A stretch of DNA of 64,000 nucleotides, taken from Escherichia coli (GTDB lineage Bacteria > Pseudomonadota > Gammaproteobacteria > Enterobacterales > Enterobacteriaceae). Shown piece after piece: positions 18,802-64,000 of the stretch (positions within the stretch are counted from its first letter, which is position 1; every line of letters begins with the position of its first letter). The position numbers and the translations under genes were made by a program. The stretch lies in assembly GCF_016903815.1 (NCBI RefSeq), contig NZ_CP069973.1. One strand, given 5' to 3'. The notes beneath the pieces are model-generated. The model searched no databases and had not been told where the DNA came from. It was given only the letters and a program-made list of their open reading frames with translations.

Positions 18802-18877
18802 GCCCGGATAGCTCAGTCGGTAGAGCAGGGGATTGAAAATCCCCGTGTCCTTGGTTCGATTCCGAGTCCGGGCACCA
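18802..18877 (+). tRNA. pheV: tRNA-Phe (GAA anticodon)
   Basis: 76-nt cloverleaf gcccggatagctcagtcggtagagcaggggattgaaaatccccgtgtccttggttcgattccgagtccgggcacca; position after yqgA. Confidence 0.95.
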
Positions 18878-19074: not shown

Positions 19075-20337
19075 ATGGCACTGACTGACGCAAAAATCCG
19101 GGCTGCAAAGCCCACTGACAAGGCTTATAAACTTACTGACGGGGCCGGCATGTTCCTGCTGGTTCATCCTAATGGTTCCCGTTACTGGCGTCTCCGTTAT
19201 CGTATTCTGGGTAAGGAGAAGACTCTGGCACTTGGTGTGTATCCAGAAGTTTCTCTCTCCGAAGCTCGTACAAAACGGGATGAGGCCCGAAAACTGATTT
19301 CGGAGGGGGTTGACCCTTGCGAACAGAAAAGAGCTAAAAAAGTTGTCCCTGATTTACAGCTCTCTTTTGAACATATTGCACGACGCTGGCATGCCAGTAA
19401 TAAACAATGGGCACAATCACACAGCGATAAAGTACTCAAAAGCCTCGAGACACACGTTTTCCCCTTTATCGGCAACCGGGATATCACAACACTCAATACC
19501 CCGGACCTGCTTATCCCTGTTCGTGCTGCAGAAGCTAAACAAATTTATGAAATCGCCAGTCGTCTGCAGCAAAGAATATCTGCTGTAATGCGTTATGCCG
19601 TACAGTCTGGCATCATCAGATATAACCCGGCTCTGGATATGGCTGGTGCATTGACCACGGTAAAACGCCAGCATCGCCCTGCTCTGGATCTTTCACGCCT
19701 GCCTGAACTTCTGTCGCGTATTGACGGTTATAAAGGCCAGCCTGTCACCCGACTGGCAGTTATGCTGAATTTACTGGTTTTTATTCGTTCCAGTGAACTC
19801 AGATATGCCCGCTGGTCTGAAATTGATATTGACAATGCCATGTGGACTATTCCAGCCGAACGCGAACCTCTGCCGGGCGTAAAATACTCACACCGGGGCT
19901 CCAAGATGCGAACACCACATCTTGTGCCACTCAGCCAACAGGCTGTAGCCATACTGACAGAACTTCAGACATGGGCAGGTGAAAATGGTCTGATATTTAC
20001 GGGTGCACATGACCCGCGTAAACCAATCAGTGAAAATACTGTAAATAAAGCCCTCAGGGTGATGGGGTATGACACAACCCGGGAAGTCTGTGGCCATGGA
20101 TTCCGGGCGATGGCGTGCAGTGCATTGATTGAATCAGGTTTGTGGTCCCGCGATGCTGTGGAACGTCAGATGAGCCATCAGGAGCGTAATGGTGTACGTG
20201 CTGCGTATATCCATAAAGCAGAACATCTGGAAGAACGTCGACTGATGCTACAGTGGTGGGCAGATTTTCTGGATGCGAACAGAGAACAATGTATCAGCCC
20301 GTTTGAATATGCAAAGATTAACAATCCATTAAAATAG
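19075..20337 (+). CDS. P4-type tyrosine integrase
   Basis: 420-aa ORF, N-terminus MALTDAKIRAAKPTDKAYKLTDGAGMFLLVHPNGSRYWRLRYR typical of P4/CP4 integrases, adjacent to tRNA. Confidence 0.9.
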   Translation: MALTDAKIRAAKPTDKAYKLTDGAGMFLLVHPNGSRYWRLRYRILGKEKTLALGVYPEVSLSEARTKRDEARKLISEGVDPCEQKRAKKVVPDLQLSFEHIARRWHASNKQWAQSHSDKVLKSLETHVFPFIGNRDITTLNTPDLLIPVRAAEAKQIYEIASRLQQRISAVMRYAVQSGIIRYNPALDMAGALTTVKRQHRPALDLSRLPELLSRIDGYKGQPVTRLAVMLNLLVFIRSSELRYARWSEIDIDNAMWTIPAEREPLPGVKYSHRGSKMRTPHLVPLSQQAVAILTELQTWAGENGLIFTGAHDPRKPISENTVNKALRVMGYDTTREVCGHGFRAMACSALIESGLWSRDAVERQMSHQERNGVRAAYIHKAEHLEERRLMLQWWADFLDANREQCISPFEYAKINNPLK

Positions 20338-37453: not shown

Positions 37454-40400
37454 TTAGTCTCCAGGATTTCCGGGGCGGTTCAGCTGTTCATTAAAACGTT
37501 GTCCAGGCTGATCATAAAGTGCGCGTAATGTCTCCGCGGATGGCCGCGGTTGCATTTGCTGCATGCAGGGTTTCTGGTGGTAATCAAAATACTGTGGCAG
37601 ATGCTGGATCTCTGCTTTGTTTTCAATTACCCGTTGAAGGGCTCTTTGACGCAACTCTCTTGATGATTTGTCACGGATCGATTCCAATTGTAGCTGGCTG
37701 CCGCTACTAATTCGCTTACGAGCAGCATCAAAATCAAAGCGAATAGCCAATAGACTCGGCGTAGTCTCACTTAGCTGCAATTCCCCTAATTGCACTGATT
37801 CACGCTTATCTTTAATATAAACAATGATCTTATCATCAAGTTCAAAGCTGAGGTCAGCACCGGATTCCGTAGTATATGGGTAGAGTAAGCAACCACTCGG
37901 TGATTCCTGAAAGTCAGTAGAGTCGATGTTGACTATATCTCGTAGGTCTACTTCTGTATCAGATAATGCCTGCCATAACTCAATTGGGCTTGACTCACTA
38001 CTATCGAAGTCATCTTCATCCATCTCTTGATTAGGATTAGCTCGCTCAATGATGGCATCAATTACTGGCTCGAGGTTAAACAGTAGTTCAATAAAAGTAT
38101 TACGCTGATTAAGTGAGCCACGTTGTAATGAAAGTTGAGTATTAATTTTAGCCTGGGAATATTTACCAGCCTTTATACTTTCTTCGATCGATAATCCTTT
38201 TTCATACACTATTCTATTAATAGTGCGATTATCAGGATCTAAGTCTATCAATAGCCGCTCTCCTAGGCCAGTGATGTAACAACGCAATTCATGCGCAAAG
38301 CGTGGGTTAGATGACCAGTTACATTGAAAATAATAGATCCCATCATTTTGTTCTAGAAGCTTCACTTCTTGCGGCCAATCATCTGTGCCCCAGCAAACAG
38401 GAATTACCTTATCCTGTGACTCAGACGCCACAACTTGATTAATCTCAGCTTGTTCCGGTGCTCGAATTGACTGCAGCAAAGGATCGAGCGCGATAGGTAT
38501 ACCGTCAACGGTTTGTTTTGCGCGTTCTAGCTCAGCCTGCACCAGTACTGGCATATCTTCACTAAATAGCTCCTCCACCATACGATATACTGCAAAGCAA
38601 TCTCGCCCAAAAGCATCAGTACTTTCGGGATTCTCTGGCTGGTAGCGATTATCTGCAGTTAATTCATCACTGAATTCAAGCAATCCAATCAGAGTAATTA
38701 CTGTCTGCTCCCCGACTTGTACCAGCAGTTTCTCTGGGCAAAGATCTCCATGAGGTAACTGCTTTTCATGAAAAGCATGAATGGTGTTGATCAACTTTTC
38801 CGCAATTGTAAAACGTTGGGATTGTACTAACACGTTCTCAGCAATAAACTGTGACCACGGTAGGCCATCCACATACTCGCTCACTACATACAAGCCGCCT
38901 TGTCCTAATAGTCCATAGGACTGCACCTTAGGAGTTGGCAGATTTATATGCGTAAGCTTATCGATCCGTTGCTTAAAAGCGTGGATACGGCGGTTAACAC
39001 CAGGTTGTTGAGGGGTCAAAATAACACCATCCCACAATTTTACCTGCAGAGCTTTCCCACCTTGTTCACAGTGATAACTGATGCTGCCAGTCGTAGCAAT
39101 AGCAGCAAGAGCAGAGTAAACCATAGACAACTGTTCAGGAAGTGGAGGAAACTCAATTAACACACCAACGCTGTTCATCCCTTCGCGAAAGAATTTGTTT
39201 TGCTTTAATTCTTGATAAATCTGGTTAGCTTCATCAAATTCTTGGCTATGTTCCTTAGTAGCTGCATTAAACTCATTGAGCATTATGTCCGCACGTGGAA
39301 AGCGTTTACTTGGCTCAAGGTTAAGAGCTTGCTCAAACCAGCTATTTAGAATACCGCTAAAAGGATCAGTTAATGGAGCTCTCCATTCAGGCATCTGTCC
39401 AGGAGTCAGTAATGATTCACCTGCAAAACAAATACGATAAGCAATTACAGCCAACATGAATACATCTAGGCGATAGGGCTCAACTGCTTCTTCAAAAGCA
39501 TCTTCGGGCAAAATATATGGAGCACTTTGCAATGTCGGACGCAATGACTCTAGGCTATTATGTCCCTCCAGTGAGGCTGCGCCAAAGCCAGTAACGACAA
39601 TGCTCTTCTGATCCCCTGCGTACCATAGATTGTGCGGGTCAATATCACAATGACTGATACCCAAGCTATGTAATTCCGAGAATGGAGCTAATAATGCACG
39701 AACGCGATCAATACGCTCAGATTTACTCCATCCGTCAGCTTCGCTATCTAGAATCTCATCTAATCGGCTAAAACTACGGCGTAACTCATACAGCTCACGG
39801 GCATCATCAGTTATATCCTCCTCGGATAGTTCCCTTACAGCACGCAACATATAATCCTGCATAGTTGCGCTGCCATGACGAACTAGGCGACCGACTCGAG
39901 TCTCACGCAGAGCTATCTCAGCCCACAATGTTTGCATTGCGTTTGCTACACCCAAGGCATCAAAGTTCCACTGCCGTAGCAGACCTCTGTGTTGACTATT
40001 GTCTTTGTGGGTAGCCCTGAATTCGTTGTAGACCATGTGAGGGTGACTAAAGAATGGCTTATCGTTCGCAAGATAACCGCTTTCTTTTAGTGGCAAAGGC
40101 CTGACTTTTGGTCCTTCAAAGAAGGACTTAATTATAGGTAATGCCTCATCAGAATTTGGTCGAGGCTTTCCCCCTTCAAAAAGATGAAAAAAGTTAGTGT
40201 GTTGCACCAGCTTTTCGTAATTTTTTGGGTTACCTATAGTCAAGAATTCATCACGGGTATGAACATAGCGCCTCTCACTTAATGGCAAGTTTTCAGGACC
40301 AGCTGTGCCACACAGCACTACATGAGCCTCAACATGCAAAAAGTAACCCAGCTTACGAGATAACTCTTCCTGCAACAAATCTTTTAGTCGCAGTGCATGC

Positions 40401-48635: not shown

Positions 48636-50179
48636 GCTGATGACTCCTGAAAGTTAATGACGTTTTAAGTGCTGTAAACGAATTAATGCTTTCGCTCATA
48701 ATCAGATCTAAAACGGTAATAACTTACAGACGGTATTTATCAGGCATGCTGTAACAGAATGGATACGTCGGTTATTAACGACACACAGCGTTGTGCTGAA
48801 GGGTATGAGTTATCTGATGGCATTGTCTATAGAGATGAGATAAACGAGGTGCGAAGAAAATACAGATTCAATACAACACAGTGAAATACAGAAAAATACG
48901 AACTGTAATCCCGCTGCCAGGCGGTTAGGAAACATATTACAACTATAAGCTCATGGTTTGTAAATTTGCTCTCAGTGAGTCTGAAAAAACGTTTATAAGG
49001 TCACCACAATAAACTCACACGCGCTTATTCAATCTGTTCTCCAGGATATGAACGTTAACGACACACGATAGCATAAGACAACATACAATGGATGAATAAT
49101 TTTCACCCAGTACCTTAAACAATACAACCGGCAACAAATATAATCAGAAATTCACTCTGTTAATTCTGTTGTTTATCCTGCGCTGTTAAACATGACGGAA
49201 CCATGGATACCTTATCAAAGAGTAAGCATTCAGTTAATCAGTAATGACAGAGAAATTGATGTTCACCAGAATAGTTAAAACACTTCAGATAAACAATCAT
49301 TGTTAAGCAAATACGGTTCATAATGGATAAATTAGAATCAATTACTGTTTTACTGAAGATGAGAATAGATGAATATCAACAATAGCGTAGTAGAGAATAA
49401 CTTACCTGAACATCATATGAGTTACAGTAGTTATGATTGAGGGATGGAGTGAATACGATAACAAGAGTAATACTAATGGAATGTGTAAAGATTGAGAGTG
49501 AGTGAAGACAGGAAGTAAATAACAATAGAGATTGTATGAAAAAGGGAGTGAATAAAGAATATATAAAGAATAAATATAATTATAGTAATAAACCTAAATT
49601 AAAATCATCCTTGTTTGATGAGTAAAAATAATTCTAGAAAATGAATCTGTCTGAAAACTCTTTCTCAGAGATTAACCGATCAGATGCTCAACGGACTCAA
49701 TAAATTGGCTGAGTCAGGTTACCTCATCCACACTCTATTTGTTTCTAGAAGGATCTACCATTTTGTTCATCTACCGGAACACATCAATTTAGTAACTCGA
49801 TAATATCGGTTATGTAGATATTTATCGTTGCTACCAATGCCTAGATTATTATTCTCCAAGTATTTTCTTGACTTACAGGCTAATTTTGAAACAAATGTCA
49901 TGCTATTTTAGGAAAAGAACCTATGCAAAAGTCTGCTATGAGCGAGGAGCAGATATTCATCTGGTATACAAAGACAATATCGCTTAAGTCATCAGTGCTG
50001 CCACTTTAACCACTAGCTCTGCTCTTTTTGGACTTTTGAGCTAAAAATTAAATCTGACAGTGTGATAAGGTGCAAGTTTCTGAAAATACGCCAGTTGTTT
50101 TACACTCAAAAGCCCCCATTACTATCTGATGTTAATGGCGCAGCAGTTATCTTTCAGATTATTAAGGGGAAACAAGAGT

Positions 50180-50884
50180 ATGGCAAGATGTACAGCTCCT
50201 GTACGTGGACATAGCTCAGCAGCAGCTGCTGCTGCCTGTCCCGCATGTCGTAATCGCAGTGGTTATCGCCGCAGTAGCTACAGTTATGATAGTTACCCTT
50301 CTTACTCATCAGGCTCTAGCGGTGGCGGAAGTTATGGAGGCAGTAGCGGTGGTTCCAGCAGCAGCGCGAAGCCACGTTGGTCAAAATCAGGGTCTTCCGT
50401 TTCTTACACAACAGCCCAAGTACAATCACTCACACCAATTCGACAAGCGGTAGAGAAACTTGCCATTGAGCAACCTGATCTGCGTGATGTCTTTCTTTGC
50501 CATGCTTGGGATGACCGACAAGGTATTGCCAAAGAGTTACACGATTTGCTCGAAGCGGCAGGTGTCAAAGTATGGTTCAGCGAAAAGGATCTTGCCCTTG
50601 GTGTTCCGATGATGCGTGCCATTGATAAAGGATTAGCAAACTCTCGAATCGGCTTGGTTTTAGTGACACCTGCATTGTTAAACCGTCTTCCTAAAGAAGG
50701 CGTTGCTGATAAAGAACTTTCCGCCTTACTGGCAGGCAACCAACTCGTTCCCATCGTGCATAACACGACGTATGAAGCTCTCCGTAATGTCAGTCCTTTG
50801 CTTGCATCCCGAAGCGGCCTCGACACGGGAGAAGATACATTGGCAGTTGTTGCAACAAAAATTGCAGAGCTGATCACTGTTTAG
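50180..50884 (+). CDS. TIR-domain protein with Ser/Gly/Tyr-rich low-complexity N-terminus
   Basis: RBS aagggga then ATG; TIR-like motifs DVFLCHAWDD, VWFSEKDLALG, SRIGLVLVTPALL. Confidence 0.7.
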   Translation: MARCTAPVRGHSSAAAAAACPACRNRSGYRRSSYSYDSYPSYSSGSSGGGSYGGSSGGSSSSAKPRWSKSGSSVSYTTAQVQSLTPIRQAVEKLAIEQPDLRDVFLCHAWDDRQGIAKELHDLLEAAGVKVWFSEKDLALGVPMMRAIDKGLANSRIGLVLVTPALLNRLPKEGVADKELSALLAGNQLVPIVHNTTYEALRNVSPLLASRSGLDTGEDTLAVVATKIAELITV

Positions 50885-53100: not shown

Positions 53101-53730
53101 CGACATTCTCAACATCTTCAGACTTCCATACATACTGGGTGTTGATTTCTCACTTTTACAGCCAGCATGGAGTTTTCTGTCCTAAAAACAGAGCAGATTT
53201 ACTCTGGAATTATTTTTCTACCCCCGTATTTCAGGCCCCAGAAAAGACAATCCGAAGCAAACCGTTTGTCAGCCTCCATATCATCTTTTACCCCCGGAAA
53301 GTGATCGCGTTTACAACCAGAATGACAGCCATACTGATTATGTCGTCTCCCGGCCCCCTTCACATATAACATGCATGTCTGTCATTGCTTACTGCTCCAC
53401 ATGACCGGATTTCACATACAGGATGCACATTCAGTGTTTTTATCGCTACTATAACAGACAGATTACTGTCGTCTTTACTCTTCAGATTGTTAATCTGACC
53501 ACAAGAACAGCCGAACGGCAAAACGCCCTCCACAAGGGGCACATGAACCATAGTTGATAGCATGTTTTTCCTAATCAAGGAATAGTTCAGGAATATTTTA
53601 TTGCATTAATAACTGGCGAATAATCGTTCTGTGAACACAAAATGCTTTTATTTGTAAATTTTATTGCATTGCACTCGTTTTATTGATATGGGGTTTAATA
53701 ACAGATAACCCGGAAAGAAGGAGAAAACAG

Positions 53731-54522
53731 ATGACATTACGGATTAACGATCAGGGGCGAGATAAACAGAATCAATTTTTATCGAAAAATGGAGAAAATC
53801 TGAATTCGTTAAAATCGCGTCATGTGCAGGATAGGCATTTACCTGAATGGCTTAAGGATAAAGTTGCAGCATTCTGGTTTTGTCTGGTGATAAAGGATAT
53901 GAAAGTGTCAGGGAGCAGTTACTATGAACTTACCATGCAACTTCCCACTTCTGAAGAATCTGTTTGCATCAGTAAGCTGTCATCCTCAACCCATGAGATT
54001 CGGCTGGAGATCATCAGGCGATGGATTGATAGTGTAGCGCAGATAGAAACGGAAGCTTTTACTAAAAATCTCGTTGATGCCATCTATAAAAACTGGAAGG
54101 AAATCGGGAACAAAAACCAGGCCACATGGCTTAAAAAAAATCCGGAACAACTCGAGTGGGCATGGAAATATATTAACATTCGTATTCCCGAGTCACATTT
54201 AACCTGGTTTTGCCCCGTCAATAACGAAGAGAAACGCATTGCCATCTTAGCATTGCTTAAAATACTGTATCCCGGAGATATACCATGCCAGTACAACGAC
54301 AAAGAGTTTCATGTCGGGATCTGCGCTGAAGAACATTTTTACAGAAGAATGCACGACGCTTTCAGAAAACAGTTTATCGACGGGAAAAAAGATAAACGGG
54401 TACAAATTAACGTAAAGATATCACCGTCCGCAAAAAGCGCTCTGGACAGACTGACCAGAGCGAGGAAAACAACACAGCAGGCTATTCTGGAACAACTGAT
54501 TCTGAACGGTAGACTGGATTAA
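53731..54522 (+). CDS. hypothetical protein with C-terminal RHH/HTH-like tail
   Basis: RBS aaggag then ATG; tail ...SAKSALDRLTRARKTTQQAILEQLIL; contains an A8 homopolymer at 54133-54140. Confidence 0.5.
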   Translation: MTLRINDQGRDKQNQFLSKNGENLNSLKSRHVQDRHLPEWLKDKVAAFWFCLVIKDMKVSGSSYYELTMQLPTSEESVCISKLSSSTHEIRLEIIRRWIDSVAQIETEAFTKNLVDAIYKNWKEIGNKNQATWLKKNPEQLEWAWKYINIRIPESHLTWFCPVNNEEKRIAILALLKILYPGDIPCQYNDKEFHVGICAEEHFYRRMHDAFRKQFIDGKKDKRVQINVKISPSAKSALDRLTRARKTTQQAILEQLILNGRLD

Positions 54523-55505
54523 CTTTCACTACTTCCACTCCTGGCAGTTTTCCTCTTTTTGTAGTGTCTCCCGGCTGCAGGCATCAGGTACTTTTCCGTC
54601 ATTTCGTTGCAGAACTCTTCAATGTAGTTAATCAGCTTCTGGTGTGCTTTCACCTTTTCTTCCCCGGGGGACGCTTTCAGATAAATGTCCTCCTTTTCCA
54701 CAAGTGTATTTATAAACTCTCCCGGACATCCCTGGTTATAAAGCAACGTGAAAAACAACACATTCCCCAGTCTCTCCAGTAACTGCGATTTAACCCTGTA
54801 TTGTTGTTTGCTGAGGATTGATTGTTTTATAAAGCTTAGTCTTGTTAAAAGTTGTTCAAATCCCGGTTCCAGTTTAAAAACAGATTTTAATACCAGGGAC
54901 TGATACTCCTGATAAAAAAGTTCAAACGTCGGGGATGCAGACTGACGAACAGATTTGGCTACAACCCATGGACTAAATCCCATGATTGGGATTTCCTTCG
55001 CTCCCTCCAGCGCACTCAGAGGTAGTCCAGCAATCCATGCGTCCAGCTTAGCCGAATCAATATCCCCGCTCAAAACCTCATACAAACTGCCCGTGAACGG
55101 TTGAGTCGGTTTTTTTGTTGTTTTACCTTCTGATTGCCTGAATCCATCCACTTTTCTCCGGATATTACGCGGAATCAGCATAAAAGGCGGGACATTAAGT
55201 GATAAACGTTTACCCGTCATACGATACCAGTGGCCCACCTCAACCTTAATCCGTGTATCTGGCCTTGTATCTGGCCTTGTATCTGGCCTTAGCTCAAGTG
55301 CTATTATGTTAAGCAGGTACAGATAACGCACCGTATAACAGTCAAAATGTTTCTCCGGATCAAACGGCTCTGATCGTTCTCTGCACACAAGTCCGCTGCG
55401 CTTCAGTATTCGCTGGGTATCTTTCCAGGCCTTACTCTGAAGAATGGTGGTAACTCTGGCTTTATTAGCAATCTCACGCAGCGCATCACTTTGTTGTGCC
55501 GTCAT
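54519..55505 (-). CDS. hypothetical protein containing (RPDT)x3 tandem repeat
   Basis: ORF with RBS ggaggg before MTAQQSD; convergent with, and 4-nt overlapping, the previous gene. Confidence 0.5.
   Translation of the reverse strand: MTAQQSDALREIANKARVTTILQSKAWKDTQRILKRSGLVCRERSEPFDPEKHFDCYTVRYLYLLNIIALELRPDTRPDTRPDTRIKVEVGHWYRMTGKRLSLNVPPFMLIPRNIRRKVDGFRQSEGKTTKKPTQPFTGSLYEVLSGDIDSAKLDAWIAGLPLSALEGAKEIPIMGFSPWVVAKSVRQSASPTFELFYQEYQSLVLKSVFKLEPGFEQLLTRLSFIKQSILSKQQYRVKSQLLERLGNVLFFTLLYNQGCPGEFINTLVEKEDIYLKASPGEEKVKAHQKLINYIEEFCNEMTEKYLMPAAGRHYKKRKTARSGSSES
55253..55292. repeat. 12-bp in-frame tandem repeat (tggccttgtatc, about 3 units)
   Basis: Seen directly; encodes RPDTRPDTRPDT on the minus strand. 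Confidence 0.6.
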
Positions 55506-55611
55506 CTCTTCCCTCCACACTTTGTCACTCCAGATTTTTTCACGTCCATATTACCTGAATGATAAACCGGATTAGTGTGATCCGGTTCAGCGAAATCAAC
55601 AGGATACCGGT

Positions 55612-56496
55612 ATGTCATTCAGCCATTCTTCCCTCTCTGCACAAGTGAAATCATATCTGACGTTTCTTCCTGAAGAAATTCGCCAGAAAATCCTTGAACA
55701 TCTCCACGGTGTTATTCATTACGAGCCCGTGATTGGCATTATGGGTAAATCCGGCACAGGCAAAAGCAGCCTGTGTAATGCCATTTTTCAGTCCCGTATC
55801 TGCGCCACGCATCCCCTGAACGGCTGCACCCGCCAGGCTCATCGTCTTACCCTGCAGCTCGGTGAACGCAGAATGACGCTGGTCGATCTGCCCGGCATTG
55901 GTGAAACACCGCAGCATGATCAGGAATACCGGACACTTTATCGTCAGCTGCTACCGGAACTGGATCTGATTATCTGGATCCTACGGGCTGATGAACGTGC
56001 GTATGCTGCCGATATTGCCATGCATCAGTTTTTACTGAATGAAGGTGCAGATCCCTCGCGTTTTCTGTTTGTTCTCAGCCATGCCGATCGCGTGTTTCCT
56101 GCTGAAGAATGGAACGACACAGAAAAATGCCCGTCCCGTCAGCAGGCGCTCTCACTGGCGACGGTGACAGCCCGGGTGGCAACCCTGTTCCCTTCATCAT
56201 TTCCGGTACTCTCCGTTGCTGCACCTGTCGGCTGGAACCTTCCGGCGTTTGTGTCGCTGATGATCCACGCACTGCCACCACAGGCAACCAGCGCGGTGTA
56301 TTCACATATCCGGGGAGAAAACCGCTCTGAACAGGCCCAGAAACACGCACAACAGACTTTTGGTGACGCCATCGGGAAAAGCTTTGACGCTGCCGTTGTC
56401 CGGTTCAGTTTTCCGGCCTGGATGTTACAGCTTCTCCGTAAAGCCCGGGACCGCATTATCCACCTGCTGGTCACACTGTGGGATCGTCTGTTCTGA
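55612..56496 (+). CDS. YeeP/YkfA/YfjP-family GTPase
   Basis: P-loop GIMGKSGTGKSS; CP4-type backbone position. Confidence 0.8.
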   Translation: MSFSHSSLSAQVKSYLTFLPEEIRQKILEHLHGVIHYEPVIGIMGKSGTGKSSLCNAIFQSRICATHPLNGCTRQAHRLTLQLGERRMTLVDLPGIGETPQHDQEYRTLYRQLLPELDLIIWILRADERAYAADIAMHQFLLNEGADPSRFLFVLSHADRVFPAEEWNDTEKCPSRQQALSLATVTARVATLFPSSFPVLSVAAPVGWNLPAFVSLMIHALPPQATSAVYSHIRGENRSEQAQKHAQQTFGDAIGKSFDAAVVRFSFPAWMLQLLRKARDRIIHLLVTLWDRLF

Positions 56497-56614
56497 GCGC
56501 CCCGGAGTCCCCCGTGGCAACCGTATACCTTTACACGACAACGGATTACGGTAACCACTGCCGTATACCGTCTGTCATTATCAATAACACGCTCTTTAAT
56601 TTCAGAGGTCAGTC

Positions 56615-57292
56615 ATGAATACCAGAATTCTTTTTCCCCTGCTGTTCACTGTGGCATCCTTCTCCGCCTCCGCCGGCAACTGGGCTGTCAAAAACGGCTG
56701 GTGTCAGACCATGACGGAAGATGGTCAGGCACTGGTAATGCTGAAAAATGGCACGATTGGTATTACCGGCCTGATGCAGGAATGCCCGAATGGCGTACAG
56801 ACGCTCCTGGGCAGCCGTATCAGTATTAACGGTAACCTGATCCCCACATCACAAATGTGTAATCAGCAGACGGGATTCAGGGCTGTTGAGGTGGAAGTCG
56901 GACAGGCGCCGGAAATGGTCAAAAAAGCCGTTCACTCCATAGCAGAGCGTGATGTGTCCGTTTTACAGGCATTTGGTGTACGAATGGAATTCACCCGCGG
57001 TGATATGCTGAAGGTCTGTCCGAAATTTGTCACATCACTTGCCGGTTTTTCCCCGAAACAGACACCCGCCATTAATAAAGATTCCGTCCTGCAGGCTGCC
57101 CGGCAGGCATACGCCCGGGAATATGACGAGGAAACAACAGAAACCGCTGATTTTGGCTCTTACGAAGTAAAAGGCAATAAGGTTGAGTTTGAAGTGTTCA
57201 ATCCTGAAGACCGTGCGTACGACAAAGTGACCGTCACGGTTGGTGCTGACGGTAATGCCACCGGTGCCAGCGTTGAATTTATCGGAAAATAG
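56615..57292 (+). CDS. hypothetical secreted protein
   Basis: Signal peptide [20 protein letters not shown]. Confidence 0.55.
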
Positions 57293-57297
57293 CCGGT

Positions 57298-57531
57298 ATG
57301 TCGGACTGTCACCCTGTTTTATTGCCCGAAGGCCCTTTCTCACGCGAACAGGCGGTTGCCGTCACAACAGCTTACCGCAATGTGCTTATTGAAGATGACC
57401 AGGGAACGCATTTCCGGCTGGTTATCCGTAATGCTGAAGGTCAGTTGCGCTGGCGATACTGGAATTTTGAACCTGATGCCGGAAAACAGCTAAATCCGCA
57501 TCTCGCCAGTGAGGGAATTCTCAGGCAATAA
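57298..57531 (+). CDS. hypothetical small protein
   Basis: 77-aa ORF only. Confidence 0.4.
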
Positions 57532-57620
57532 ACGTCTTCATTTCATCCATCAGGCCGCGTCTTCTCCGGGAGACGCGGCCTTTTCATTTATACCGCTAAC
57601 TCATTCATAAGGAGCAAAGT

Positions 57621-58439
57621 ATGCAATTAGCCAGTCGTTTTGGTCATGTAAATCAGATCCGTCGGGAGCGCCCACTGACACGCGAAGAACTGATGTACCA
57701 CGTCCCGAGTATTTTTGGAGAAGACCGGCACACCTCCCGCAGTGAACGGTATGCGTACATTCCCACCATCACCGTCCTGGAAAATCTGCAGCGGGAAGGC
57801 TTTCAGCCGTTCTTCGCCTGCCAGACCCGTGTGCGCGACCAGAGCCGTCGGGAATATACCAAACACATGCTGCGTCTGCGGCGGAGCGGACAGATAACCG
57901 GCCAGCATGTGCCTGAAATTATTCTGCTCAACTCCCATGACGGTTCATCCAGCTACCAGATGTTACCCGGATATTTTCGTGCCATCTGCACCAATGGCCT
58001 GGTCTGCGGTCAGTCGCTGGGAGAAGTCCGGGTGCCACACCGGGGAAACGTGGTGGACAGGGTGATTGAAGGTGCTTACGAAGTGGTGGGCGTTTTTGAC
58101 CGGATTGAGGAAAAGCGTGATGCCATGCAGTCGCTGCTCTTACCGCCACCGGCACGTCAGGCACTGGCTCAGGCGGCACTGACTTACCGTTATGGTGACG
58201 AACATCAGCCCGTCACCACTGCCGACATTCTGACACCACGACGCCGGGAGGATTACGGTAAGGACCTGTGGAGTGCTTATCAGACCATCCAGGAGAATAT
58301 GCTGAAAGGCGGGATTTCCGGCCGCAGTGCAAAAGGAAAACGTATCCATACCCGGGCCATTCACAACATCGACACCGACATTAAGCTCAATCGCGCATTG
58401 TGGGTGATGGCGGAAACGCTGCTGGAGAACCTGCGCTGA
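57621..58439 (+). CDS. DUF932-family protein (YfjQ/YafZ-like)
   Basis: Translation and CP4-type backbone position. Confidence 0.65.
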   Translation: MQLASRFGHVNQIRRERPLTREELMYHVPSIFGEDRHTSRSERYAYIPTITVLENLQREGFQPFFACQTRVRDQSRREYTKHMLRLRRSGQITGQHVPEIILLNSHDGSSSYQMLPGYFRAICTNGLVCGQSLGEVRVPHRGNVVDRVIEGAYEVVGVFDRIEEKRDAMQSLLLPPPARQALAQAALTYRYGDEHQPVTTADILTPRRREDYGKDLWSAYQTIQENMLKGGISGRSAKGKRIHTRAIHNIDTDIKLNRALWVMAETLLENLR

Positions 58440-58515
58440 TGCCGTTTACCTGAATCACGTCTGTCCCTGCCCCCGAGCCTTCTTCATTCATTTGCTTTTT
58501 ATAAGGAATAATATC

Positions 58516-59001
58516 ATGACAACCTCTTCGCATAATTCCACCACACCTTCTGTTTCCGTAACTACTGCATCAGGGAATAACCAGTCTCAACTGGTTGCCA
58601 CTCCCGTCCCTGATGAACAGCGCATCAGCTTCTGGCCGCAGCACTTTGGCCTCATTCCACAGTGGGTGACCCTGGAGCCCCGCGTCTTCGGCTGGATGGA
58701 CCGTCTGTGCGAAGACTACTGCGGTGGTATCTGGAATCTGTACACCCTGAACAACGGCGGGGCATTTATGGCACCCGAACCGGATGACGATGATGACGAA
58801 ACATGGGTACTGTTCAATGCCATGAACGGTAACCGCGCTGAAATGAGCCCGGAAGCTGCCGGTATTGCCGCCTGTCTGATGACGTACAGTCATCATGCCT
58901 GTCGTACGGAGTGTTATGCCATGACGGTCCATTATTACCGGCTGCGGGATTACGCCCTGCAGCATCCGGAATGCAGCGCCATTATGCGCATCATCGACTG
59001 A
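58516..59001 (+). CDS. antirestriction protein (KlcA/ArdB family, YfjX/YafX-like)
   Basis: RBS aaggaa then MTTSSHNS...; acidic DDDDDE patch; backbone position. Confidence 0.75.
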   Translation: MTTSSHNSTTPSVSVTTASGNNQSQLVATPVPDEQRISFWPQHFGLIPQWVTLEPRVFGWMDRLCEDYCGGIWNLYTLNNGGAFMAPEPDDDDDETWVLFNAMNGNRAEMSPEAAGIAACLMTYSHHACRTECYAMTVHYYRLRDYALQHPECSAIMRIID

Positions 59002-59016
59002 ATGGAGGCAGGGACA

Positions 59017-59493
59017 ATGCAGCAGCTTTCCTTTCTGCCCGGAGAAATGACGCCCGGCGAGCGCAGTCTCATTCTGCGGGCTCTGAAAACCCTGGACCGC
59101 CATCTTCATGAACCCGGTGTGGCCTTCACCTCCACCCGTGCGGCACGGGAATGGCTGATTCTGAACATGGCGGGACTGGAGCGTGAAGAGTTCCGGGTGC
59201 TGTATCTGAATAACCAGAATCAGCTGATTGCCGGTGAAACCCTCTTCACCGGCACCATCAACCGCACGGAAGTCCATCCCCGGGAAGTGATTAAACGCGC
59301 CCTGTATCACAATGCCGCTGCCGTGGTGCTGGCACACAATCACCCGTCAGGTGAAGTCACACCCAGCAAGGCAGACCGCCTTATTACGGAACGTCTGGTA
59401 CAGGCACTGGCCCTGGTGGATATCCGGGTGCCGGACCATCTGATAATCGGTGGCAGCCAGGTTTTCTCCTTTGCGGAACACGGTCTGCTTTAA
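59017..59493 (+). CDS. RadC-like JAB-domain protein (YeeS/YfjY-like)
   Basis: JAMM-like motif HNHPSGEVTPSKAD. Confidence 0.8.
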   Translation: MQQLSFLPGEMTPGERSLILRALKTLDRHLHEPGVAFTSTRAAREWLILNMAGLEREEFRVLYLNNQNQLIAGETLFTGTINRTEVHPREVIKRALYHNAAAVVLAHNHPSGEVTPSKADRLITERLVQALALVDIRVPDHLIIGGSQVFSFAEHGLL

Positions 59494-59561
59494 CCCGTCA
59501 CCGTCACAACCACATCACACCTGTTTTCACTTTTATCTTCTGTCTTCAGAGGTATCACACT

Positions 59562-59783
59562 ATGAAAATCATCACCCGTGGTGAAGCCATGCGTATTCAC
59601 CGTCAGCATCCTGCATCCCGTCTTTTTCCGTTCTGTACCGGCAAATACCGCTGGCATGGTGGCACTGAAGCGTATACCGGTCGTGAAGTGCAGGATATTC
59701 CCGGTGTGCTGGCTGTATTTGCAGAACGCCGTAAGGACAGTTTTGGCCCGTATGTCCGGCTGATGAGTGTCACCCTGAACTGA
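59562..59783 (+). CDS. DUF987 protein (YeeT-like)
   Basis: 73-aa ORF in conserved position between radC-like and antitoxin genes. Confidence 0.7.
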   Translation: MKIITRGEAMRIHRQHPASRLFPFCTGKYRWHGGTEAYTGREVQDIPGVLAVFAERRKDSFGPYVRLMSVTLN

Positions 59784-59945
59784 TGTTCCGTCACCCGGGA
59801 AACGAGTACGACCAGATGACCTCAGACGCCGCTGTGGATGAGGCCATTCTCATCAACGAATACACCTTCACCGAAACCGGTCAGCGCGCCGGCTGACCTG
59901 TCATCATTAAACCATTCTTAACCACTTTTCAGAGAGGATTTTATC

Positions 59946-60314
59946 GTGTCAGACAAACTCTCCGGGATAACTCATCCCGACGACAATCACGACCGCCCCT
60001 GGTGGGGGCTTCCCTGCACAGTGAGGCCCTGTTTTGGCGCTCGTCTGGTGCAGGAGGGTAACCGCCTGCATTACCTTGCCGACCGCGCCGGTATCAGAGG
60101 CCGCTTCAGCGACGCAGATGCATACCATCTGGACCAGGCCTTTCCGCTGCTGATGAAACAACTGGAACTCATGCTCACCAGCGGTGAACTGAATCCCCGA
60201 CATCAGCATACCGTCACGCTGTATGCGAAAGGGCTGACCTGCGAAGCCGACACCCTCGGCTCCTGTGGTTACGTTTATCTGGCTGTTTATCCGACGCCCG
60301 AAACGAAAAAGTAA
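59946..60314 (+). CDS. cbeA: type IV antitoxin CbeA/YeeU family
   Basis: Translation DDNHDRPWWGLPCTV...LVQEGNRLHYLADRAGI matches YeeU/YfjZ family. Confidence 0.8.
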   Translation: MSDKLSGITHPDDNHDRPWWGLPCTVRPCFGARLVQEGNRLHYLADRAGIRGRFSDADAYHLDQAFPLLMKQLELMLTSGELNPRHQHTVTLYAKGLTCEADTLGSCGYVYLAVYPTPETKK

Positions 60315-60403
60315 ACCACCGGAATAACCTTCTGCTCCGGCCTGGTGCTTTCACCACGCCACTTTTCCATTTTTCATCTCTGCATATCAGGAAAACCTTC
60401 AGT

Positions 60404-60781
60404 ATGAAAACATTACCCGATACACACGTACGGGAGGCATCGAGCTGCCCGTCTCCCGTCACCATCTGGCAGACTCTGCTCTCCCGACTACTGGGCCAGC
60501 ATTACGGCCTTACACTGAATGACACACCGTTCGCCGATGAACGTGTGATTGAGCAGCATATTGAAGCTGGCATTTCACTGTGTGATGCGGTGAATTTTCT
60601 CGTGGAAAAATACGCGCTGGTGCGTACCGACCAGCCGGGATTCAGCACTTGTCCCCGCTCTCAGTTAATAAACAGTATTGATATCCTCCGGGCTCGCCGG
60701 GCGACCGGCCTGATGACCCGCGACAACTACAGAACGGTAAATAACATTACCCTGGGTAAACATCCGGGGGCGAAACAATGA
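60404..60781 (+). CDS. cbtA: type IV toxin CbtA/YeeV family (cytoskeleton-binding)
   Basis: Translation ...LLSRLLGQHYGLTLNDTPFADERVIEQHIEAGISLCDAVNFLVEKYALVR matches YeeV/YpjF. Confidence 0.8.
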   Translation: MKTLPDTHVREASSCPSPVTIWQTLLSRLLGQHYGLTLNDTPFADERVIEQHIEAGISLCDAVNFLVEKYALVRTDQPGFSTCPRSQLINSIDILRARRATGLMTRDNYRTVNNITLGKHPGAKQ

Positions 60782-61200
60782 AACTGGCCCTGACGCTGGA
60801 AGCCGACAGCATTAATGCGCAGGCGCTGAACATGGGGCGCATTGTCGTTGACGTCGATGGTATTAAGCTCGCTGAACTGATTAACAAAGTCGCTGAAAAC
60901 GGTTATTCACTCCGCGTGGTGGATGAACATGACGCTACCGAAACACCGGCGACTTCTGCCAGCCCTCATCAGTTGCCGGAAGACAATACAGTGATACAGA
61001 GCGTGATGCCATTAACCACTGAAACAGCGCTGGATATCCTCATTGCGTGGCTGCAGGACAATATTGACTGCGAATCGGAAATTATCTTTGACAACGATGA
61101 GGACAAAACGGATTCGGCAGCACTGTTGCCCTGTATTGAACAGGCCAGGGAGGATATCCGTACCCTGCGCCAACTGCAGCTTCTGTACCAGAACCGGTGA
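60778..61200 (+). CDS. YeeW-like protein
   Basis: 140-aa ORF overlapping the toxin stop; backbone position. Confidence 0.6.
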   Translation: MKLALTLEADSINAQALNMGRIVVDVDGIKLAELINKVAENGYSLRVVDEHDATETPATSASPHQLPEDNTVIQSVMPLTTETALDILIAWLQDNIDCESEIIFDNDEDKTDSAALLPCIEQAREDIRTLRQLQLLYQNR

Positions 61201-61284
61201 GTCTTACTCACCAGACTTCATTCCACTGACGCCAGCCTGAACAGGGCAGGCGTTTTCATTTATCTGCAAAAAGGAATATCGATT

Positions 61285-62127
61285 ATGTCTGAAATCACAG
61301 CCCCCCGTCCGGAAGTGGTCAACGGGCATACGGACGTTATCTGCTCAACCAGTATCCGCCACATTCTGGCTGTACGAAAGAGTACACTGCTGCAAATCGA
61401 CACACTTATCCGGCAACTGGCTGAAATATCAGCAATGACAGAAAGTATTGGCGGTAAAGCCGCCCCGGGCTGGGCCATGAAACAGGATTTTCGCTACGGC
61501 TGCTGGCTGATGGAGAAACCGGAAACCGCAATGAAAGCCATCACACGCAATCTCGATCGCGAAATCTGGCGTGACCTGATGCAACGTTCAGGGATGCTTT
61601 CCTTAATGGATGCACAGGCCCGTGATACATGGTACCGGTCACTGGAGTACGATAATTTTCCGGAAATCAGTGAAGCGAACATTCTGATCACATTTGAACA
61701 ACTACACCAGAATAAGGATGAGGTGTTTGAGCGAGGGGTGATCAACGTCTTCAGGGGACTGAGCTGGAATTACAAAACCAATTGCCCCTGCAAATTTGGC
61801 AGTAAAATTATCGTCAACAACCTGGTGAGGTGGGACCGGTGGGGGTTTCATCTTATCACCGGGCAACAGACTGACCGACTCGTCGACCTGGAAAGAATGC
61901 TACATCTGTTCAGCGGCAAACCGATCCCCGACAACCGGGAAAACATCACTATTCGTCTGGATGGTCACATCCAGTCCGTTCAGGGTAAAGAGCGCTATGA
62001 AGACGAGATGTTCATCATTAAATACTTTAAGAAGGGATCTGCACACATCACTTTCAAAAGGCTGGAACTGATTGACAGAATTAACGATATAATAGCCAAG
62101 TACTTTCCTTCTGTGCTCTCAGCCTGA
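61285..62127 (+). CDS. DUF4942-like protein
   Basis: 280-aa ORF at the distal end of the CP4-type backbone. Confidence 0.55.
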   Translation: MSEITAPRPEVVNGHTDVICSTSIRHILAVRKSTLLQIDTLIRQLAEISAMTESIGGKAAPGWAMKQDFRYGCWLMEKPETAMKAITRNLDREIWRDLMQRSGMLSLMDAQARDTWYRSLEYDNFPEISEANILITFEQLHQNKDEVFERGVINVFRGLSWNYKTNCPCKFGSKIIVNNLVRWDRWGFHLITGQQTDRLVDLERMLHLFSGKPIPDNRENITIRLDGHIQSVQGKERYEDEMFIIKYFKKGSAHITFKRLELIDRINDIIAKYFPSVLSA

Positions 62128-62237
62128 TCCCGAGTGTGATTCCCTTTCGATATCAAAAGGGACTGCGGGTATAATTGAGGGTACATTTTTAATCAAACCA
62201 AATAAATTATATTAATATCAATATGATAAAAGAAATT

Positions 62238-62260
62238 TTCGATTCCGAGTCCGGCACCAC
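62238..62260 (+). repeat. attR-like direct repeat: imperfect copy of tRNA-Phe 3' end
   Basis: ttcgattccgagtccgg-cacca versus tRNA ttcgattccgagtccgggcacca (one base missing). Confidence 0.65.
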
Positions 62261-62274
62261 TAATTCTTAAGAAC

Positions 62275-62295
62275 CCGCCCACAAGGCGGGTTTTT
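62275..62295 (+). terminator. hairpin terminator
   Basis: cccgcccacaaggcgggttttt. Confidence 0.4.
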
Positions 62296-62439
62296 GCTTT
62301 TGGATCTTTATATAAAATAAACTTGGGAGCATAACGCCATCAGGTCTTAAACACTCCCGAATCATCAATAAACATCCCCCGTTAACAAAACACAGTTCAG
62401 TTCACATAACATCCCTGTTATCCCACACATATCTGCTGG

Positions 62440-62640
62440 CCGAACGACGCCAGTGCGCGTACGGAGGCAAGAGCAGCCCTGCACATGGCAGCGCTTGTGG
62501 TAACCTGGTTTAATCCGGTGATAAAGGCGTTTTACATGCATCTGCCAGCAGCCGGAAAAACCAAAAAAGTGGCGCTGGTTGACTGTATGCGTAAATTGCT
62601 GACCATCCTGAACGCAATGCTCAGAAAAAACGAAGAGTGA
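62440..62640 (+). pseudogene. IS110-family transposase 3' fragment
   Basis: Translated tail ...WFNPVIKAFYMHLPAAGKTKKVALVDCMRKLLTILNAMLRKNEE* typical of IS110-family C-termini; no N-terminal part present. Confidence 0.45.
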
Positions 62641-63450
62641 AATGAATCGTAGCATCATGTTGCTCCATAATTTTTACGTTCAAGACAGTTGATTATCGGC
62701 GCATATGACTCAAAAAGAGCCTGATGATTGCCTCTTTTCCATAGGCTCTTTCTCTGAAGTGAAGGAAGGCCCGGAAGAAAGCACTCGCTGGCATACGTGA
62801 CTCCAGCTCAACCGGAGATAATCACCATTGTTATTTTTCTATTTAATAATAATCTCCTGAAAAATAGATATAGCAAAAATACAATCCGGCCAGATTTAAT
62901 TCCGCATTCATTACCAGAAATAATCAACACCACAACTATCATATCATTCAATAGTCACCGCTAAAATTTTATTATTTTCCTCTTCTTTACATGGAAATTG
63001 TCAACCTGTTTATTATGCCGCACTTAAATAGTTAATCACAAAACAACATCACCATTATTTGCGTGTTTTATTTATTAATAACATAGTCATACGTTCTTTT
63101 TTTACAAGGAAATAATCAATTGATAAATTGTTTTTGGTCTTAATAGTCAAGTAGGAAACATTTTAATAAATGATAAAAATCCTAAATTCCTTGTTCATAA
63201 TGTAGGGGTGTGTTAAATAGGTGGGCAAAATTTGGTTCCCCTTCTCGCCTGTAATATTGCAGCATCTTCGCACCTCCATGAGACATTGCGACTTAATAAG
63301 AAGGTGATAAGTCCTGCATATAAGCATGGACTGACCATGGTTTTATATTCATTAAAAATTTTGTTACAACCCATTGATTTAGCATAAATAAATTATAGTG
63401 GGTTCGGGTTAGTTGTGACTGTGGCATTATTTCCGTGCAAAGGAGCTGAT

Positions 63451-64000
63451 ATGTCTGAAAGACATTTACCTGATGACCAGAGCAGTACTATCGATCCATA
63501 TCTAATTACCTCTGTTCGCCAGACTCTGGCAGAACAAGGCGCAGCATTACAAAACTTGTCTAAACAACTGGATTCCGGGCAGTACCAGCGTGTCCTTAAT
63601 TTGATAATGAACTGTAAAGGTCACGTTATTCTTTCGGGAATGGGTAAATCAGGGCATGTCGGTCGTAAAATGTCAGCGACGCTGGCCTCTACGGGTACGC
63701 CTAGTTTCTTTATTCATCCTGCAGAAGCTTTCCATGGCGATCTGGGCATGATTACGCCTTACGATCTTCTGATCCTTATTTCTGCCAGCGGTGAAACGGA
63801 TGAAATCCTCAAGCTAGTTCCTTCACTGAAAAATTTCGGCAACCGAATTATCGCCATTACCAATAATGGAAATTCCACGCTGGCGAAAAATGCTGATGCC
63901 GTGCTGGAACTCCACATGGCGAATGAAACCTGCCCGAATAATCTTGCACCAACAACGTCTACCACGCTGACGATGGCGATCGGCGATGCGCTGGCGATTG
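63451..64000 (+). CDS. kpsF: arabinose-5-phosphate isomerase KpsF (5' part; continues beyond window)
   Basis: SIS-domain motifs GMGKSGHVGRKMSATLASTGTPSFF; RBS aggag; preceded by about 700 bp of AT-rich DNA. Confidence 0.85.
   Translation, partial: MSERHLPDDQSSTIDPYLITSVRQTLAEQGAALQNLSKQLDSGQYQRVLNLIMNCKGHVILSGMGKSGHVGRKMSATLASTGTPSFFIHPAEAFHGDLGMITPYDLLILISASGETDEILKLVPSLKNFGNRIIAITNNGNSTLAKNADAVLELHMANETCPNNLAPTTSTTLTMAIGDALAI

Follow-up and report, generated by a model that had tools for sequence, protein, structure and literature searches.

Does the gene pair at 59946-60781 of the window (the whole 64-kb stretch of E. coli DNA analysed here) encode a working CbtA/CbeA-family toxin–antitoxin module, and what does it do for the island that carries it? 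A sequence-only reading had placed such a pair there, as a CP4-type addiction module in the backbone of the island, and had suggested that it can stabilise the island. Two same-strand ORFs were found at exactly these coordinates, the antitoxin gene lying directly 5′ of the toxin gene and separated from it by an 89-nt spacer (Table 1). The antitoxin ORF matched PF06154 (CbeA_antitoxin) with 184.1 bits (E 7.9e-55; profile positions 1-100 of 101), against a curated Pfam cut-off of 27 bits, and the toxin ORF matched the full profile of PF06755 (CbtA_toxin; positions 1-112 of 112) with 206.3 bits (E 9.9e-62; cut-off 25 bits). A Shine-Dalgarno-like run, GAGAGGA, is located 8 nt 5′ of the antitoxin GTG. 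NCBIfam had no model for either protein, and a tblastn search found no second copy of the pair within the 64-kb window.

Three K-12 loci served as references: cbeA-cbtA in CP4-44, yafW-ykfI in CP4-6 and yfjZ-ypjF in CP4-57. Alignment with K-12 yeeV/yeeU, proposed in the sequence-only reading as a check, was positive: the DNA was colinear with CP4-44 from 5′ of cbeA into yeeW, and the window antitoxin and toxin were 91% and 89% identical to K-12 CbeA and CbtA (YeeU/YeeV), respectively. The CP4-44 proteins belong to the same Pfam families and, as in the window, are encoded antitoxin first with a GTG start for the antitoxin. The CP4-6 and CP4-57 pairs are of the same families too, but their identity with the window proteins is just 58-66% (antitoxin: 63% with YafW and 66% with YfjZ; toxin: 63% with YpjF and 58% with YkfI). 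YafW and YfjZ lack a 14-residue N-terminal extension that the window antitoxin has, and YkfI and YpjF lack the 12-residue C-terminal tail of the window toxin, which is itself one residue longer than K-12 CbtA. Among solved structures, the antitoxin matched YeeU (PDB 2H28, E 4.5e-76; 2INW, E 2.7e-77) and, within the YeeU/YfjZ structure set, 2JN7 and 2EA9 (E ~5e-42), and the toxin had no relative (best E 0.21). The toxin had 2281 homologues at E <= 1e-10 in a database search. These sequence comparisons confirm the pair as an intact, conserved copy of E. coli CbeA/CbtA, at a level of similarity far beyond chance.

Table 1. Features of the pheV island and of the toxin–antitoxin locus, in window coordinates
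Feature	Position	Strand	Details	Basis
tRNA-Phe (pheV)	18802..18877	+		ARAGORN
attL	18855-18877	+	pheV 3′ end	sequence
P4-type tyrosine integrase	19075..20337	+	Arm-DNA-bind_3, Phage_int_M and Phage_integrase domains	
TIR_2-domain protein	50129-50884	+	251 aa; island, between two YagK/YfjJ-family genes	
GTPase	55612-56496	+	block member	
DUF905	57298-57531	+	block member	
DUF932 (YfjQ/YafZ-like)	57621..58439	+	PF06067, 168.8 bits	
Antirestriction (YfjX/YafX-like)	58516..59001	+	PF03230, 127 bits	PGAP coordinates
RadC-like JAB protein (YeeS/YfjY-like)	59017..59493	+	PF04002, 152.7 bits	PGAP start
DUF987 (YeeT-like)	59562..59783	+	PF06174, 132.8 bits; same place as yeeT in K-12 CP4-44	
37-codon gene remnant	59783..59896	+	aligns to C-terminus of WP_001774605.1 (strain 537-20)	
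cbeA/yeeU-family antitoxin gene	59946..60314	+	122 aa, GTG start	ORF list, Pfam, K-12 comparison
Antitoxin–toxin spacer	60315..60403	+	89 nt, ~90% identical to K-12 spacer	
cbtA/yeeV-family toxin gene	60404..60781	+	125 aa, ATG start	ORF list, Pfam, K-12 comparison
DUF5983 (YeeW-like)/DUF957 in-frame fusion ORF	60778..61200	+	140 aa; overlaps cbtA stop codon (ATGA)	
DUF4942	61285..62127	+	PF13708, 221.8 bits; last island gene	
attR	62238..62259	+	direct repeat of pheV 3′ end; 22/23 nt, 1 base deleted; 17-nt exact seed	

The pair is already known, and its annotation is routine and correct for one of the commonest accessory modules of E. coli. With a 901-bp query, matches were obtained in 4929 of 5426 complete E. 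coli genomes (91%), and the median genome had three such places. Identity was 100% over the 901 bp in RefSeq genomes of six strains (222, 103, 2779, 5283, 98210 and 98192), in which PGAP annotates a 'type IV toxin-antitoxin system YeeU family antitoxin' and a 'TA system toxin CbtA family protein'. In strain 222, the closest genome, these are WP_001280951.1 (YeeU family antitoxin) and WP_021543420.1, and four places match the pair query. The pair is therefore ordinary and matters little in itself; what the present analysis adds are the bounds of the island, the gene remnants beside the pair, the unproven status of its stabilising role and the class of toxin to which it belongs, defined by a cysteine at residue 15.

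The island is inserted at pheV. The second copy of the pheV 3′ end, on the far side of the island, was located by a k-mer search, since a search allowing mismatches only misses it because of the single-nucleotide deletion. It lies 110 bp past the DUF4942 gene and is followed by a flank and terminator identical to the downstream flank of pheV in K-12. Because this repeat is followed by the native pheV flank, the island spans 18855-62259 (43.4 kb), with the kps capsule genes and an IS110 fragment outside it. The pair is located 1.46 kb from attR, at the right end and opposite the integrase. A P4-family integrase beside a tRNA gene, a far-end repeat and the conserved gene block are all present, and the placement of the pair in a CP4-type backbone is thus upheld. 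The insertion site (pheV) differs from that of CP4-44 in K-12. In an Rfam search of 55000-64000 (E<=1), the only match was a sub-threshold one to P9, over the attR tRNA fragment and the terminator.

Within the island, the pair belongs to a series of co-directional genes in the order GTPase, hypothetical, DUF905, DUF932, antirestriction, RadC, DUF987, CbeA, CbtA, DUF5983/DUF957 and DUF4942. The block from the GTPase to the toxin is shared with CP4-57, CP4-6 and CP4-44, and gene order and spacing match all three. Specifically, CP4-6 and CP4-57 have the same run of DUF932, antirestriction, RadC, DUF987, antitoxin and toxin genes, and CP4-44 has RadC and DUF987 upstream of the pair and, downstream, a YeeW-like ORF that overlaps the toxin stop codon. 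The spacer between antitoxin and toxin is 89 nt in the window and 88 nt in CP4-44, whereas the gap before the antitoxin gene is 162 nt compared with 73 nt. The longer gap in the window is due to a gene remnant there. In strain 537-20, an intact gene for a 214-aa hypothetical protein lies between DUF987 and cbeA, and the 37-aa ORF of the window is the 3′ remnant of this gene, so it was rejected as a small gene in its own right. This remnant form was found in 3529 of the 5426 E. coli genomes and, among the matches listed, was never annotated as a gene. The remnant ORF overlaps the stop codon of DUF987 (TGATG).

A second rearrangement lies on the other side of the pair. The ORF downstream of cbtA consists of the first ~52 codons of the DUF5983 gene joined in frame to the DUF957 gene: its residues 4-57 matched PF25638 (DUF5983_N; 97.8 bits), and its C-terminal 63 aa shared 92% identity with the DUF957 protein encoded in strain 20Ec-P-124. 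The fusion arose because ~356 bp present in strain 20Ec-P-124 is replaced by 82 bp in the window. PGAP annotates the interval as a pseudogene and a separate DUF957 gene; Pfam gave no match for the DUF957 part, so this label comes from the PGAP annotation. Three further island ORFs, at 53683-54522 (+), 54519-55520 (-) and 56615-57292 (+), had no Pfam match (279, 333 and 225 aa, respectively).

Both genes of the pair are intact and under purifying selection. Compared with K-12, the antitoxin gene had a dN/dS (Nei-Gojobori) of 0.23 and the whole toxin gene one of 0.25, which falls to 0.08 in the toxin core (codons 32-124). The window toxin, aligned with 54 full-length representatives of sequence clusters, had the consensus residue at all 73 positions conserved in ≥90% of sequences. 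F65, which cannot be substituted in CbtA, YkfI or YpjF without loss of FtsZ binding (PMC5624674), is present in the window toxin, and each of the 54 aligned full-length homologues with a residue at that column has it as well. The N-terminal codons 1-31 (60404-60496) have diverged from K-12 far more than the remainder of the gene (dS 0.60, dN 0.32), with DTHVRE in place of VLPGQA at residues 6-11, cysteine in place of arginine at residue 15 and glycine in place of aspartate at residue 31. Positive selection on these codons was rejected, because dS is also high and dN/dS is 0.53, a pattern that fits a recombined allele class. Together, the DTHVRE N-terminus and a remainder near-identical to K-12 suggest recombination between allele classes.

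The type IV mechanism is known from a small number of studies in K-12. There, CbtA blocks the assembly of FtsZ and of MreB, which it binds independently of each other, at the H6/H7 loop and the flat face, respectively (Heller 2017, PMC5624674). Toxins of the CbtA family are toxic on over-expression (PMC5624674, PMC5371832), and CbeA is reported to neutralise in the type IV mode, leaving the toxin unbound and instead attaching to the filaments and bundling them (PMC5371832, PMC13276650). On the basis of homology and of these K-12 experiments, which inform toxicity, molecular targets and antitoxin action alike, the 125-aa toxin is predicted to bind the FtsZ H6/H7 loop, with the flat face of MreB as a probable second target. 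Binding would block polymerisation of FtsZ and MreB, and over-expression would be expected to halt division and elongation and to deform the cell; such an effect on cell shape, as the sequence-only reading had anticipated, would follow by homology (Heller 2017, PMC5624674; Wen 2017, PMC5371832). The 122-aa antitoxin is predicted to leave the toxin unbound and to bind and bundle FtsZ and MreB filaments. On the island, the pair is a passenger of the conserved accessory-gene block beside attR of the 43.4-kb P4-integrase element at pheV. A functional CbeA/CbtA module that acts in type IV mode is, in our view, highly probable (about 0.9).

Two alternatives bear on whether and how such a module would act. 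The absence of R15 raises the possibility of a toxin that reaches FtsZ alone, blocking division and leaving elongation untouched, so that cells would form filaments and not lemon shapes. In K-12 CbtA, R15C specifically abolishes MreB binding and converts lemon-shaped cells to filaments (PMC5624674), and the window protein, 89% identical to K-12 CbtA, has this cysteine in a CbtA-type backbone. However, C15 is the native residue of YkfI and YpjF, both of which block elongation nonetheless and are unaffected by C15R (PMC5624674). Furthermore, among 55 aligned sequences (the window toxin and the 54 representatives), Cys-15 was the majority state (39/55) and was always paired with DTHVRE, never with the VLPGQA motif of K-12, which is a context unlike that of the K-12 point mutant. 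The DTHVRE...C15 class is thus commoner than the VLPGQA...R15 class of K-12, and the window allele is a member of this majority. Since most aligned sequences have this cysteine and YkfI and YpjF carry it naturally, Cys-15 is normal for the family as aligned here and has no bearing on CbtA membership, and the view of it as an unusual natural 'R15C' allele that has lost MreB binding was discarded. Dual targeting of FtsZ and MreB is nevertheless not assured for the C15 allele, because R15C removes the MreB interaction in K-12 CbtA; the abundant C15/DTHVRE class may target MreB differently from K-12 CbtA. We regard lost or altered MreB targeting in the window allele as somewhat unlikely, and give the same modest weight to a toxin confined to FtsZ.

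The other alternative is that the ORFs, although intact, are essentially unexpressed and have no current role, being kept by hitch-hiking and recombination between islands. No consensus sigma-70 promoter was found by a promoter scan of 57000-62100, and the 89-nt spacer had neither a consensus promoter nor significant RNA structure on folding (z = -1.34). Strong terminator-like hairpins at 57552-57581 and 62268-62296 bracket nine co-directional genes from DUF932 to DUF4942, which may form a single transcription unit. Given the absence of a consensus promoter in this interval, expression of the pair may rely on read-through from upstream. The decay of both neighbours would also suit a silent passenger. 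In contrast, strong purifying selection on both genes, most marked in the toxin core, the retention of every conserved toxin position and the presence of the pair in 91% of complete E. coli genomes argue against it, as do the oxidative-stress and biofilm phenotypes of K-12 triple-deletion mutants (PMC5371832). Silence of the pair therefore appears unlikely, and the functional type IV module remains the preferred reading.

What a functional module would do for the island is a separate matter, and its suggested stabilising role is an unproven label that should not be repeated as fact. A classical addiction module would kill or arrest cells after loss of the island, because the toxin is stable and persists when the labile antitoxin has gone. 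The toxin family is toxic on over-expression, the island that carries the pair is mobile, having an integrase and intact att repeats, and some ICEs and superintegrons gain stability from toxin–antitoxin systems (reviewed in PMC5371832), all of which would suit addiction. In K-12, however, deletion is tolerated for all three antitoxin genes, the operons show no autoregulation by either protein and each of the three antitoxins neutralises all three toxins (Wen 2017, PMC5371832). Addiction also presupposes that no other antitoxin able to neutralise the toxin remains after loss of the locus, whereas the copy numbers found (four in the closest genome, a median of three in the species) mean that paralogous antitoxins would remain. 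Because of these additional places and the cross-neutralisation in K-12, loss of the window copy would probably not kill the cell, and we find an addiction role improbable.

A role in abortive infection, with phage infection freeing the toxin to arrest the infected cell, appears more doubtful still. Many toxin–antitoxin systems defend against phage, and the island also has antirestriction genes and a TIR-domain protein that may be a defence gene. Moreover, a preprint describes integrase-bearing defence islands in which RadC/ArdB antirestriction, CbtA/CbeA and DUF genes lie beside one direct repeat, opposite the integrase (PMC12458937), so modules of this kind ride on defence-carrying elements. 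Yet PADLOC models matched none of the eight block proteins, and phage defence by CbtA/CbeA was not reported in the literature retrieved; we consider this role very improbable. The layout of the att-distal 'moron' modules in that preprint is exactly that of the window, although the account there is generic and assigns no function to the module as a whole. In a further reading, the pair would be part of a conserved establishment or accessory cassette beside attR that acts on entry or activation of the island, and would not be an addiction device. The proposed partners of the pair are the antirestriction, RadC, DUF932 and DUF987 genes. Two published observations fit this reading: many defence islands have the same cassette at the end away from the integrase (PMC12458937), and CbeA-family antitoxins (CbeA, YagB and YfjZ) were reported to pass through an F-like type IV secretion system (PMC11288057). 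We offer this reading as speculative, and judge it to be about as improbable as addiction.

Apart from one segment, the window was colinear with strain 222 at 99.99-100% identity. The island of strain 222 has an extra 15.9 kb, with IS elements and a group II intron, which is absent from the window at ~37483-37486. At this junction, the coding sequence for an AAA-domain protein of 1652 aa is cut short.
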